NCBI GenBank assembly: GCA_965261125.1
Contig: CBDHCS010000001.1
Location: 85,405-149,404, forward strand
Reading direction: 5' to 3'
From: Candidatus Poribacteria bacterium
GTDB taxonomy: Bacteria; Poribacteria; WGA-4E; WGA-3G
Length of the DNA: 64,000 nucleotides
The notes under the pieces are model-generated. The model was not told the origin of the DNA. It saw nothing but the letters and a program-made list of their open reading frames with translations, and did no database searches. A program made the translations under genes and the position numbers. Shown piece by piece: positions 32,570 through 54,467 of the stretch (its first letter is position 1; the number at the start of each line of letters is the position of its first letter).

Positions 32570-33694
32570 ATGAAAAACTATATGCTCATTCTCACACTAT
32601 TACTCGTCGCCGCCCTCAGTGCTACCGCAGCAGGGGACAACAAAGACCCAATCCGCACTCTATTGCCGTTTGATGCAATCCCTGCCATCACAAAGCCGCA
32701 ATTTGTGCCAGCAAGCAAAGCAAAATTAGACGCGGATGCTCCGGTCATTGGTGTGACATTCAACGGTGAAAGTCATGCCTACTCACTCTATCTGCTGAAC
32801 GGACACGAAATTGTGAACGATGTTGTCGGCGGAAACAAAATCGCTACGACATGGTGACCGCTCTGCAAAACGGCTATCGTGTATAGCCGGGAACTTGACG
32901 GTAAAACCTATACTTTCGGTGTCAGCGGAAAATTATGGCGAGATGCACTACTAATGTACGACCATCAAACACGTTCCCTTTGGTCTCATATCACAGGAGA
33001 AGCGATAGAGGGACCACTGAAAGGCAAGCAGTTGAAACCACTCGCTTCCATGCCACAGATCGCATGGAAAACATGGCAGACAAATTACCCACAGACAAAA
33101 GTGTTATCTGTGGGTGCGCGTGAAAGCTTCAAGCGCGATAATTACGCAGACTATCATAAAAGCCAACGCGCAGGTGTAAGTGGGACAAGATACACCGATA
33201 AAAGGCTACCTAATAAATCTCTCGTGATTGGCGTTCAAGTGCAGACTAAAGACGGTGCGCCCGGCAAAGCTGGTGCTGACGGACAAGACAGCACTGACGG
33301 ACAAGACGGCACTGATGGACAAGACGGTGCTGCAGGGCGAAGTGGTTCTTTCGATCCCTATAACACACAGTTTCGCGCGTATCCATTAACACACTTCGCT
33401 AAAAATGCTGTGATTAACGACATGGTTGGCGAGGTGCCGCTGTTGATTTTTCACGATAAAGTGTCATTTGCAACGGCCGTCTTTAAGCGAAACATTGTAA
33501 AAGATGTGCGCACCTTTAGCTATCAAGATGGGCATTTTGTAAAGGACAACACCGGCACACGCTGGAATCTGGTCACAGGTGTGGCAACATCGGGTAAAGA
33601 TAAAGGGATGCGTCTGGAACGGTTGCCCGCTGTCAATATCTACTGGTTCGCGTGGGCACGTTACTACCCTGAAACAACAATCTATAAACCATAA
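32570..33694 (+). CDS. Secreted DUF3179-family selenoprotein (UGA at 32855-32857, W-U-P-L-C)
   Basis: The two track ORFs are in frame across one TGA. HEIVND..TTW*PLCKTAIVY..FGVSGKL..LMYDHQTRSLW matches DUF3179, whose CPLC motif has Cys at this position. A hairpin follows the UGA. Confidence 0.85.
32871..32889 (+). promoter_or_regulatory. Candidate SECIS hairpin
   Basis: CGGCTAT-CGTGT-ATAGCCG; loop starts at +21 after the UGA. Confidence 0.75.
33278..33331 (+). repeat. Three 18-bp repeats within a collagen-like G-X-Y insert
   Basis: GACGGACAAGACAGCACT / GACGGACAAGACGGCACT / GATGGACAAGACGGTGCT. Confidence 0.85.
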
Positions 33695-33697
33695 CTG

Positions 33698-34459
33698 TTA
33701 ATCGTCTAATTCAACAACTTCGCCTGCCATATCGCGATGCATTGTCGGGCGGATAACTAATTCTGGTATATTGCTTCGTTGCGGTAGAGTCGCAATGAGG
33801 AGAATCGCTGCTGAGGTTTCAGCAACATCTACCATCATTGTGCGTGCTTCTGCATCAGGTGGGATCGGACGTTTATCCAAAATTGGTGTTGCCACTTCAC
33901 CAGGAATTATGACGCTTGCTCTGATACCTGTATTCCTTAAATCATTGTTAAGAAATTCGGTAAAATTAATTACGCCTGCCTTCGCTGCGCCGTAAGCAAA
34001 TCCACTGAAAGGACCAGGCGTAACAGCAGCAAGCGATGAGATGTTGATAATCGTTCCTGATTTCGCTTTCAGCATTGCAGGCACAACTGCCTGCGTACAG
34101 AAAAACGTGCCGATTAGATTTGAATCAATGACTGAGCGTGTCTCCTCTGGTGTCGTATTAAGAAGTCTCCGATTATGTGAACTATGCCCTGCATTGTTCA
34201 CAAGCACATCAATCTGTCCAAATTTCTTAAGTACGTCGTCAATCATCTGTTGAACAGCATCGTAGTCAGCCACATCAAGCATGCAAGCCATCGGGGTACC
34301 ACCCACAGCCTCAATTTCTGAACTGACAGATATTAACTTTGATCGTGTTCTACCGAAAATCACAACATTGGCACCTTCTTGTGCCATTTTGAGGGCAGCA
34401 TCACGACCAATTCCACTACCACCACCTGTGATGATACACACTTGATCTTTTAATTTCAT
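33698..34459 (-). CDS. SDR family oxidoreductase
   Basis: TGGGSGIG, NNAG, YGAAK. Confidence 0.95.
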   Translation of the reverse strand: MKLKDQVCIITGGGSGIGRDAALKMAQEGANVVIFGRTRSKLISVSSEIEAVGGTPMACMLDVADYDAVQQMIDDVLKKFGQIDVLVNNAGHSSHNRRLLNTTPEETRSVIDSNLIGTFFCTQAVVPAMLKAKSGTIINISSLAAVTPGPFSGFAYGAAKAGVINFTEFLNNDLRNTGIRASVIIPGEVATPILDKRPIPPDAEARTMMVDVAETSAAILLIATLPQRSNIPELVIRPTMHRDMAGEVVELDD

Positions 34460-52129: not shown

Positions 52130-53164
52130 TTATTCATCAAAATCATCAAGTGTATCGATGGTTGCGGCTTTCTCAAAGAGTGAATTAAGGCGTGAGAGGT
52201 TCTGTATGCCGTTAATTTTCTTGGTAATGGATTCGGGGACATTATCAAACTTTATTTGCAGCAGTTTGATAATGTCTTCCCGTTTTGCTTCTTCTATACC
52301 TTCTTCTCTGCCTTCTTCTTTGGTAATTTCAATGATAGATTGTGCCATTTTTTCTACCTCCATATCGTGTGTTCGCTGATCAATGAGTGTAATCAAATTT
52401 TTGTGTTCATCAGGAGGGCGGCGATGTAGGATGAACAAGATGAGATAGATCATCGCTTTACGCCGCTGCGGTGCGTATTCCTCACCCAGTGTGTCAAAGT
52501 ATGAAAACGTCTTAAGCATCGCATCAATTAGCGTTTCCTCGTCCGCATTTTCCTGTTGAAGAACGGTTAGCAACCACCCCAAGAGTGGATGTTCTGTTTT
52601 TGTTAGGTCCGCTACATCGGTTTCATTTACACTTAGAAATAACGTATCAAATTTTGGAACAAACCGCGCGAGCACATCCGGCATATCCATTATTGCATCA
52701 AGTGTTAGTGGGTTATTCCATCGCTGCTCACCGGTGTAATATACAATCGGCAGAATCGGTCGAAAACGCCACTGACTTTTAGGCACTTTATTAGATTCCC
52801 ATTCTCTACGTTGGAAATCCCAAATCTGCATCATGTAAAACAACACCCGAAACCCCATTATCGGGTCAACCGTGGATTGATGCTCAATGAGGATATAAAT
52901 TAGCAGCTCATCTGTTCCCGATTCCGTCTGAAACGGCGCGGTAAACACCATATCAGACTCCTGTTCGCGCAGCGTGTCAGGGATAAAACTCCTGTTAATC
53001 TGCGATAGGCGGCTAAAGTCAATACACGCCGCCAGTTCACTTGCAAGGATTTCCACCAGGTCCCGGACGTACTCTTTGTCTTCAAACAACCAGCGTGTAC
53101 TTCGGTCAGGAAAGGGTTCAATTGGGATGTCGGAAAAATTGAGTATTTCCGGTTCTTTTGCCAT
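52130..53164 (-). CDS. Rpn family (transposase_31, PD-(D/E)XK) nuclease
   Basis: ESDMVF, YILIEHQS, PILPIVYYTGE..W, EEGREEG tail. Confidence 0.9.
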   Translation of the reverse strand: MAKEPEILNFSDIPIEPFPDRSTRWLFEDKEYVRDLVEILASELAACIDFSRLSQINRSFIPDTLREQESDMVFTAPFQTESGTDELLIYILIEHQSTVDPIMGFRVLFYMMQIWDFQRREWESNKVPKSQWRFRPILPIVYYTGEQRWNNPLTLDAIMDMPDVLARFVPKFDTLFLSVNETDVADLTKTEHPLLGWLLTVLQQENADEETLIDAMLKTFSYFDTLGEEYAPQRRKAMIYLILFILHRRPPDEHKNLITLIDQRTHDMEVEKMAQSIIEITKEEGREEGIEEAKREDIIKLLQIKFDNVPESITKKINGIQNLSRLNSLFEKAATIDTLDDFDE

Positions 53165-53279
53165 AGTCTTTATTACATCAATGCATCTTGCACAGCCTTA
53201 GGGAGGTCAACATCAATTGGATAATCAGGACGTAACCTCAATGTTGAATGCACTTGCGGCATCCAGTGTCTACAAGATT

Positions 53280-54467
53280 CTAATCAGCAGCAGGGGCGAA
53301 GGTTTCAGGGTTCTCCGCGGCTGCATCGTAATCGTCAATCAGTTTTGTAATAACAGGATTATCACTGCAAAGTGGGCAGTTTTCATCTCGATTGACTTTC
53401 ATTTCGCGATAGGTCATACCGAGTGCTTCATAAAGGATAAGCCTGCCAATAAGCGGTTCACCAATACCGATAATATATTTAATCGCTTCTGTTGCCATCA
53501 TCACACCAATAACGCCTGGGAGCACGCCCAGGACACCAGCTTCACTTCAGCTCGGCACTAAGCCGGGCGGTGGTGGTGTGGGGTACATGCATCGGTAGCA
53601 CGGGCCCTCATTCGGTTTGAAAAGTGTGACCTGTCCCTCAAACTGAAAAATACTGCCGTGAACAATCGGTTTATTCATAAGCACTGCAGCGTCGTTGACG
53701 AGGAAACGGGTGGCGAAGTTATCACATCCATCCACAATCAGGTCGTATTCCGAGAAGATCTCTTCAACGTTGTCAGCGGTAAGACGGAGATTATAAGGTG
53801 TAATCTCAACATCCGGATTAAGTGATTTTATAGTTGTAGTCGCGGATTGAACTTTCGGTGTACCAACTGCCTCTGTGCGGTGTAGGATCTGACGTTGTAG
53901 ATTGCTTAATTCCACAACATCTGAATCTATGACACCCATGTGCCCAATGCCAGCAGCGCCCAGATAAACGCCAGCAGGTGAACCTAACCCACCTGCACCG
54001 ACAAGTAAGACCTTTGCATCAAGCAGCTTCGCTTGTCCGCGTTCGCCAACTTCAGTCAGCATAAAGTGACGGCTATACCGGTCAAGCTGCTCATGCGACA
54101 TCTCTTTATCTTGTGCAGTTGGAAAACCTGCGGCACTCCAATCCCGGTATCCACCAGCCATGGACACGGTATCTGTATATCCCATTTCACGGAGTGATTT
54201 TGCAGCAAGTAGCGAACGGAGTCCTGCGGCGCAGTAAACAACTACTTTTTGGTCACGGTCAGGGAGGTAGTTTTCAACAGAAAACTCCAGCATTCCGCGT
54301 GTGACGTGCACAGCATCGGGAATATAACCAGCGCGATATTCATCTTCATCGCGAACATCCAGAAGTACAAAGTCGCTGCCGTTTTCTTGATCTGCTTTCA
54401 CGTCAGCGATAGTCACTTCTGGAATTTCTGTTTTTGCCTCCTCTACGATTTGCCTATAGGATTTCAT
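53280..54467 (-). CDS. moeB: Rhodanese-MoeB fusion selenoprotein (UGA at 53547-53549)
   Basis: Rhodanese (LDVR, YCAAGLRS), MoeB GAGGLG, SNLQRQ, DGCDN, PCYRC, then VPS*SEAGVLGVLPG in frame to CPLC. Homologs typically read PSCAEAGVLG. Confidence 0.88.
53515..53532 (-). promoter_or_regulatory. Candidate SECIS hairpin
   Basis: CCTGGG-CGTGCT-CCCAGG; loop starts at +21 after the UGA. Confidence 0.75.

Follow-up and report, generated by a model that had tools for sequence, protein, structure and literature searches.

Gene-specific hairpins of the ordinary bacterial SECIS kind very probably follow in-frame UGA codons in two genes of a Candidatus Poribacteria bacterium

The window analyzed here, a stretch of 64,000 nucleotides (nt) from a Candidatus Poribacteria genome (GenBank assembly GCA_965261125.1, contig CBDHCS010000001.1, positions 85,405–149,404 of the forward strand), contains two unrelated genes that are interrupted by an in-frame TGA, a DUF3179-family gene and a rhodanese-ThiF/MoeB gene. 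The UGA of each gene is followed by a hairpin whose apical loop opens with CGUG after 20 intervening nucleotides (N20). The two hairpins are very probably independent, gene-specific selenocysteine insertion sequence (SECIS) elements of the ordinary bacterial kind, and their shared N20-CGUG is most likely coincidental under tight common constraints. The SECIS reading was already part of the original prediction made from the window, and it is borne out by the selenocysteine (Sec, U) machinery of the genome, the conservation of both TGA codons, the pairing of U with Cys in homologs and the frozen synonymous sites of the hairpins. The same prediction had taken UGA-N20-CGUG for a lineage-specific signal that could reveal the whole selenoproteome of the genome, and in this respect it has to be corrected.

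Two UGA-interrupted genes and their hairpins

The DUF3179-family selenoprotein gene (window positions 32570–33694, + strand) is an open reading frame (ORF) with one in-frame TGA (32855–32857, +) and encodes 374 amino acids when the TGA is read as U. The protein has a signal-peptide-like start and carries U as residue 96 in a redox-type TTW-U-PLC motif. The Pfam domain PF11376 (DUF3179) matches the ORF with 197.6 bits and spans the TGA. The hairpin (32871–32889, +) is found in both the minimum free energy (MFE) and the centroid structure. It consists of a 5' arm (32871–32877, CGGCUAU), a 5-nt loop (32878–32882, CGUGU) and a 3' arm (32883–32889, AUAGCCG), which form a perfect 7-bp stem with an energy of -7.9 kcal/mol.

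The rhodanese-ThiF/MoeB selenoprotein gene (53280–54467, - strand) encodes a molybdopterin-synthase adenylyltransferase of the PRK08762 type when its in-frame TGA (53547–53549, -) is read as U. The U of the resulting PS-U-SEAGVLG sequence takes the place of Cys in the P-S-C-x-E-A-G-V-L-G loop. The Pfam ThiF domain (205 bits) spans the TGA, and the NCBIfam model NF006444 (MoeB) matches with 536.7 bits (cut-off, 449), including the N-terminal rhodanese fusion. The hairpin (53515–53532, -) is observed in the centroid structure and is composed of a 5' arm (53532–53527, CCUGGG), a 6-nt loop (53526–53521, CGUGCU) and a 3' arm (53520–53515, CCCAGG). The 6-bp stem is perfect, and the energy is -9.2 kcal/mol.

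The two elements were accurately described in the original prediction. The distance from UGA to CGTG is 20 nt in the DUF3179 gene and 20 nt in the MoeB gene, both stems are perfect with CGTG at the start of the loop, and the stem arms of the two genes are unlike each other in sequence. Each string of UGA and hairpin is present in a single copy in the window (32855–32889, + strand, and 53515–53549, - strand), and none of 100 shuffles produced a match.

The DUF3179 protein also contains a collagen-like, Gly/Asp-rich insert, GKAGADGQDSTDGQDGTDGQDGAAG, between its two conserved halves (window positions 33240–33350, residues ~224–260). The linker is variable, and many relatives match only residues 1–229 and 265–374.

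Selenocysteine machinery

The genome that holds the window (5.26 Mb, 16 contigs) contains all four components for which a check had been suggested, selA, selB, selC and selD. SelA (618.7 bits), SelB (352.2 bits) and SelD (372.2 bits) score above their curated cut-offs, the selD gene has a single in-frame TGA of its own, and a tRNA-Sec(tca) gene directly adjoins selB.

Conservation of the UGA codons and pairing with Cys

Both TGA codons recur in related genomes. A MoeB ortholog with one TGA is present in 41 of 41 related genomes. For DUF3179, 41 relatives were searched and 37 had a match; in 35 of these the ortholog contains one TGA. When the degenerate pattern W-U-P-x-C...A-x-V-Y was run against 176 genomes of the phylum, 146 matches were obtained in 145 genomes, all 146 with TGA. 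Within the phylum, the Sec form of DUF3179 was found only in the order of the window, where it occurs in 144 of 158 other genomes versus 0 of 17 genomes from other orders or classes.

The U residues of both proteins pair with Cys in homologs, a point for which the original prediction had suggested a check. Every genome also contains a Cys-MoeB paralog that is ~60% identical to Sec-MoeB, and the U of Sec-MoeB is aligned with C in 21 of 21 Cys paralogs. The U of DUF3179 is aligned with Cys in homologs from two other phyla (~30% identity by tblastn; 36% in local matches). Sec-DUF3179 was not found in five genomes of other phyla drawn from the Sec-MoeB loci; Cys forms only were observed, in two of the five.

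These patterns bear on the idea that the in-frame TGAs arose through errors of assembly, through lesions in pseudogenes or through a genome-wide reassignment of TGA, for example to Trp or Gly. Lesions of this kind do exist in the genome. A gene for an M42 glutamyl aminopeptidase (G000:C2:45799, L051) contains a private in-frame TGA within its Pfam domain, and in this genome no SECIS-like hairpin follows it at a spacing of 16–25 nt. The site was considered as a SECIS-less Sec codon and was rejected on the evidence of 20 relatives, all of which lack the TGA; 19 carry no stop at this position, and the remaining one has TAG. The M42 TGA, either a nonsense mutation private to this genome or an error of assembly, was used as a negative control. 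What a true lesion looks like in this comparison is thereby illustrated, whereas the window's two TGAs recur in 41 of 41 (MoeB) and 145 of 176 (DUF3179) independently assembled genomes. Reassignment is contradicted by the 434 ORFs of at least 300 codons that end with TGA, by ~35 same-frame TGAs that are real stops (see below) and by the pairing of U with Cys rather than with Trp or Gly. Errors, lesions or reassignment are thus an exceedingly improbable source of the two TGAs.

RNA-level constraint on the hairpins

Both hairpins lie within strongly conserved peptide motifs (TAIVYSR in DUF3179 and VLGVLPG in MoeB), and the GU of each loop is simply part of a Val codon. The hairpins could on this ground be by-products of the conserved peptides with no RNA function, the TGAs being read through or tolerated in some other way. 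The codon usage of the Sec and Cys copies of MoeB speaks against such an origin. In 41 Sec-MoeB copies, the codons for L-G-V-L-P are nearly fixed (CTG, 40; GGC, 41; GTG, 41; CTC, 40; CCA, 35, or CCG, 6). In contrast, 21 Cys-MoeB paralogs from the same genomes encode the same G-V-L-P-G peptide with varied codons for Gly (GGC, 7; GGT, 13; GGG, 1), Val (GTG, 12; GTA, 4; GTT, 2), Leu (TTA, 10; TTG, 6; CTG, 3; CTC, 2) and Pro (CCC, 10; CCG, 8; CCA, 2; CCT, 1), and none of the 21 forms a conserved hairpin. Of the two MoeB copies, only the one with Sec is under constraint at synonymous sites. The presence of both paralogs in the same 21 genomes offers a clean control, provided by nature, for selection that acts on a SECIS element at the RNA level.

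The DUF3179 hairpin shows the same freezing of third positions. GTG is used in 146 of 146 matches, ATC in 145 and GCT in 144, whereas the third positions of the Pro, Leu and Cys codons directly upstream of the hairpin vary freely. The loop is invariant in all 35 orthologs read. With a complete Sec machinery also present in the genome, the notion of by-products of conserved peptides can be given hardly any credence, and each hairpin is a conserved element beyond chance.

The stem covariation that had been proposed as a further check was not obtained within the order. Both genes show invariance there, with single changes that are compatible with wobble pairing (G-C to G-U and U-A to U-G) and occasional single mismatches but no double compensation. 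Strict covariation is seen only across phyla and only in MoeB, in the form of re-registered stems. Because strict covariation is lacking within the order, the case for RNA-level constraint rests on the synonymous freezing relative to the Cys paralog and on the cross-phylum MoeB stems.

The Sec-MoeB hairpin across phyla

Sec-MoeB genes were collected across phyla with the pattern TGA-x-E-A-G-V-L-G-V-L-P-G, using one genome per species. The scan gave >116 matches, of which 80 were listed, and the phyla are named here as in the titles of the public records. All 80 listed genes have a hairpin that complies with the bacterial SECIS model, with the G of the Val codon at nt 22 after the UGA. Among these listed matches, CGTG is found at N20 in 69 and the loop CGTGCT in 68. 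The listed records come from Rokubacteria/Methylomirabilota, Poribacteria, Verrucomicrobia, Planctomycetota, Actinomycetota, SAR324, Chloroflexi and Acidoferrum. The listed Sec-MoeB genes of Latescibacterota, Nitrospinota and Tectomicrobia keep the hairpin with the loops UGUUUU and GGUCCU and with re-registered stems such as GUGCUGGGU/GCCCGGCAC.

The MoeB SECIS element has thus been carried almost unchanged across many phyla, and the GU of its loop is part of the codon for Val in the conserved peptide G-V-L-P-G. The hairpin had been proposed to be lineage-specific. Since 69 of the 80 listed genes, spread over about eight differently titled phyla, have N20-CGTG, the CGUG loop is a property of the MoeB gene family and not of the lineage.

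Selenocysteine codons of the genome

The search for Sec codons started from in-frame TGAs flanked on either side by sequence with coding potential. Entry to the TGA list required a total length of 80 codons or more, with 8 or more upstream and 2 or more downstream of the TGA, and passage through a coding-score filter; the list is not exhaustive. From 74 candidates, 69 (all except L080, L081, L082, L084 and L085) were scanned together with selD against Pfam, with a read-through window of ±120 amino acids as the scan unit. A TGA was accepted as a Sec codon when a domain spanned it or when paralogs were conserved across it. Coding potential alone ranks TGAs poorly, and most of the top 60 are adjacent genes in the same frame. 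About 35 of the best-scoring same-frame TGAs separate two different Pfam domains and are therefore real stops between adjacent genes.

At least 20 Sec codons of the genome are supported by domain or paralog conservation across the TGA. Eighteen came from the hairpin-independent list, one from a SelD family search and one, in a DUF5069 gene, from a hairpin-filtered list. Two hairpin-positive candidates without a family (G000:C9:106286 and G000:C11:105570) were left out of the count. DUF3179, rhodanese-MoeB, FdhA, SelD, UGSC, DUF5069 and a PrdB/GrdB-like protein contribute one codon each. The others belong to three AhpC/TSA peroxiredoxins, a ResA-like WxxUGC protein, a tandem Bcp gene (two codons), three HMA metal-binding proteins, two thioredoxin-fold proteins and two C-U-[GA]-S-G-K paralogs without a family. 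The uncultivated lineage has a fairly large selenoproteome dominated by redox proteins.

The spacing and loop of the hairpins vary among these genes. At the 20-nt spacing of DUF3179 (CGUGU) and MoeB (CGUGCU), the loops open with CGUG. Spacings of 21 nt are found in the three peroxiredoxins (loops GGU, GUG and GGU), the ResA-like protein (GGA), the first Bcp domain (CGGGAUAAAUU, 11 nt) and the second Bcp domain (CGUGAU on a bulged stem). The spacing is 23 nt in the three HMA proteins (GGA), one thioredoxin-fold protein (GGU) and the C-U-x-SGK pair (AGGU). Shorter spacings are observed in FdhA (19 nt, GUC), UGSC (19 nt, GUA), DUF5069 (19 nt, UGGA), the PrdB/GrdB-like protein (18 nt, GUA), SelD (17 nt, GGG) and the other thioredoxin-fold protein (16 nt, UGGAU). 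A strict model, which requires a contiguous stem, a spacing of 16–25 nt and G at loop position 1 or 2, recovers 17 of the 20 Sec codons. Among TGAs that end long ORFs it is matched by only 15 of 434, and among random TGAs by 63 of 2,010. The general SECIS model does discriminate Sec codons from other TGAs.

Several of these genes have features of their own. The tandem AhpC/TSA (Bcp-type) domains are encoded in one ORF (G000:C7:363327 and 363777; L053 and L052), with a peroxidatic Sec in each domain and atypical SECIS loops. The HMA proteins (G000:C11:97801, 98389 and 151365; L064, L054 and L066) carry the motif G-M-T-U-x-x-C, and one of them is fused to WD40 repeats. The three have one SECIS element in common, AGUGCA-GGA-UGCACU, at a spacing of 23 nt. 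The DUF5069 ORF (G000:C10:19993, L078) has its TGA (Y-P-U-P) inside the Pfam match, followed by the hairpin AUGUUCC-UGGA-GGAACAU at a spacing of 19 nt; the name DUF5069 is absent from the text of PMC9312934.

The D-E-S-C-U-[GA]-S-G-K paralogs (G000:C14:420868–421590 and 422402–423124; L030 and L032) lie outside the window and have no match in Pfam or NCBIfam. The encoded proteins are conserved upstream as well as downstream of the TGA, and the hairpin GAGG(G/A)C-AGGU-GUCCU(C/U) is placed at a spacing of 23 nt. In relatives, 74 of 75 matches contain one TGA, and 16 of 21 genomes have the family, with up to nine copies each, often in tandem. This multi-copy family may be an undescribed selenoprotein family.

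UGA-N20-CGUG as a genome-wide signal

The original prediction generalized from the two window genes to a narrow signal, UGA-N20-CGUG, that the SelB of the lineage would recognize and that would define the selenoproteome of the genome. Several observations agree with such a signal. The match is exact in two unrelated genes, and the loops are invariant across the order. A third Sec gene, for a peroxiredoxin (G000:C6:151347), also has N20-CGTG, with the C paired in the stem, and the second Bcp domain has CGUGAU at N21.

The genome as a whole does not follow the signal. N20-CGTG follows 469 of 201,331 TGAs genome-wide, and eight of these also have a stem of at least 6 bp, versus ~6.4 expected from the mean hairpin rate; the N20-CGTG string is without genome-wide enrichment. 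Three of the eight hits are Sec codons, and five are out-of-frame or antisense chance matches within ordinary ORFs. Measured per site, N20-CGTG is enriched at Sec codons, where it occurs in 3 of 20 cases; the corresponding counts are 1 of 434 for TGAs that end long ORFs and 3 of 2,010 for random TGAs. Sec genes without the motif had been named in advance as a ground for refutation, and on this ground the narrow rule is refuted. The motif is missing from 17 of the 20 Sec codons, among them those of FdhA, SelD, UGSC, the PrdB/GrdB-like protein, the three HMA proteins, the two thioredoxin-fold proteins and the other peroxiredoxins. Their loops (GGU, GGA, GUA, GUC, AGGU, UGGA(U) and GGG) and the overall range of spacings (16–23 nt) are at odds with a single narrow signal, as is the presence of N20-CGTG in Sec-MoeB genes of many phyla. 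With 3 of 20 Sec codons recovered and 5 of 8 hits false, the proposed rule has both low sensitivity and low precision, and a dedicated UGA-N20-CGUG recognition by SelB can scarcely be upheld. The present result is mainly a correction, in that a UGA-N20-CGUG scan of this genome finds 3 of at least 20 Sec codons and returns mostly false hits.

A weaker form of the proposal would be a mild preference, not a rule, of the order's SelB for a loop G-U or G-G exactly at nt 22–23, often after C. It is kept as a possibility, though an unlikely one, because three of the 20 Sec codons have N20-CGTG and one more has the motif at N21. G is at nt 22 after the UGA in 11 of the 20 Sec codons, and CGUG opens three loops and straddles the closing pair of a fourth. 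If true, the preference would represent a lineage-level tuning of SECIS geometry, which would sharpen searches for Sec/Cys pairs but could not replace them.

Two very probably ordinary SECIS elements with a probably coincidental spacing

The reading of the two hairpins as independent, gene-specific SECIS elements accounts for the shared N20-CGUG through the constraints that act on any such element. A G[U/G] is needed ~20–22 nt after the UGA, and in frame it is most easily supplied by a Val (GUG) or Gly codon at codon 8 that follows a codon ending in C.

In the proposed mechanism, the hairpin would offer its apical loop, with G-U at nt 22–23, from 13–14 nt downstream of a UGA positioned in the ribosomal A site. 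SelB carrying Sec-tRNA(Sec) would bind the apical loop through its C-terminal winged-helix domains and deliver Sec, so that the UGA would be decoded as selenocysteine. The products would be a secreted DUF3179 protein with a UxxC motif and a rhodanese-MoeB adenylyltransferase with Sec at the Cys position of its active loop.

Some points weigh against this reading. The list of 20 Sec codons is incomplete, and its DUF5069 member was chosen by means of a hairpin filter. A two-sided compensatory stem change was not found within the order in either hairpin. N20-CGTG is somewhat over-represented among the Sec codons (3 of 20, plus the case at N21). SelB binding and Sec insertion at both UGAs are steps that we infer from the sequence features described above.

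Repeats adjacent to the MoeB gene

A short dispersed repeat is located at window positions ~54740–54910, just upstream of the MoeB gene. Its 15-mer, AATCCTGGTTCAGAC, has 91 copies in the genome, with both strands counted. One copy is at ~54890–54905 (+), and a partial copy in reverse complement lies close by. Copies related to this repeat were recurrent in the genome-wide TGA scan.

Comparison with known SECIS elements and selenoprotein families

A search of the whole window against Rfam gave no match at the gathering score, and at E ≤ 10 only unrelated weak matches (RAGATH-26, snoU30 and Yfr1) were obtained around each hairpin. This null result is expected and says little because bacterial SECIS elements are short and gene-specific.

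The bacterial SECIS (bSECIS) model of Zhang and Gladyshev, as given in the legend of Fig. 2 in PMC13188914, comprises a loop of 3–9 nt, a stem of 4–16 bp, a G among the first two loop nucleotides that in most cases precedes another G or a U, a spacing of 16–37 nt and an MFE of ≤ -7.5 kcal/mol. The DUF3179 and MoeB hairpins agree with the model in every structural respect, including their site in the coding region 3' of the UGA, loop, stem, G-U, spacing and energy. Nothing essential differs; the two loops lack the N1-N2 closing pair seen in the most common loop pattern, with C..U and C..C left unpaired.

SECIS hairpins generally have a stem of 6–8 bp and a conserved loop G ~20 nt downstream of the UGA, and the winged-helix domains WHD3 and WHD4 of SelB bind the SECIS hairpin near the mRNA entrance (PMC4605307). 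It is this general geometry that the original prediction had picked up. The two hairpins of the window resemble the Escherichia coli fdhF SECIS in the range of stem length and in the conserved loop G. They differ from it in their unrelated sequences and in the position of the G, which is at nt 22 after the UGA and not at ~nt 20. The E. coli SECIS also has a bulged U, which was not identified in the DUF3179 and MoeB hairpins.

MoeB and DUF3179 are both listed as prokaryotic selenoprotein families in the tables of PMC9312934 and PMC13188914. Sec-MoeB was first reported from the Sargasso Sea (PMC1088965). The MoeB protein of the window shares with that family the ThiF/MoeB fold and Sec at the conserved loop Cys, and its gene has the hairpin CCUGGG-CGUGCU-CCC(A/G)GG at N20 in common with most public Sec-MoeB genes; only the host lineage differs. 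Sec-DUF3179 is credited in the same tables of the two reviews to an Olavius symbiont study (PMC1976440). The DUF3179 protein of the window likewise has the PF11376 domain and the UxxC/T motif of the known family (here U-P-L-C), and Cys homologs exist. The finding is ordinary in that both protein families and the type of SECIS element are already known.

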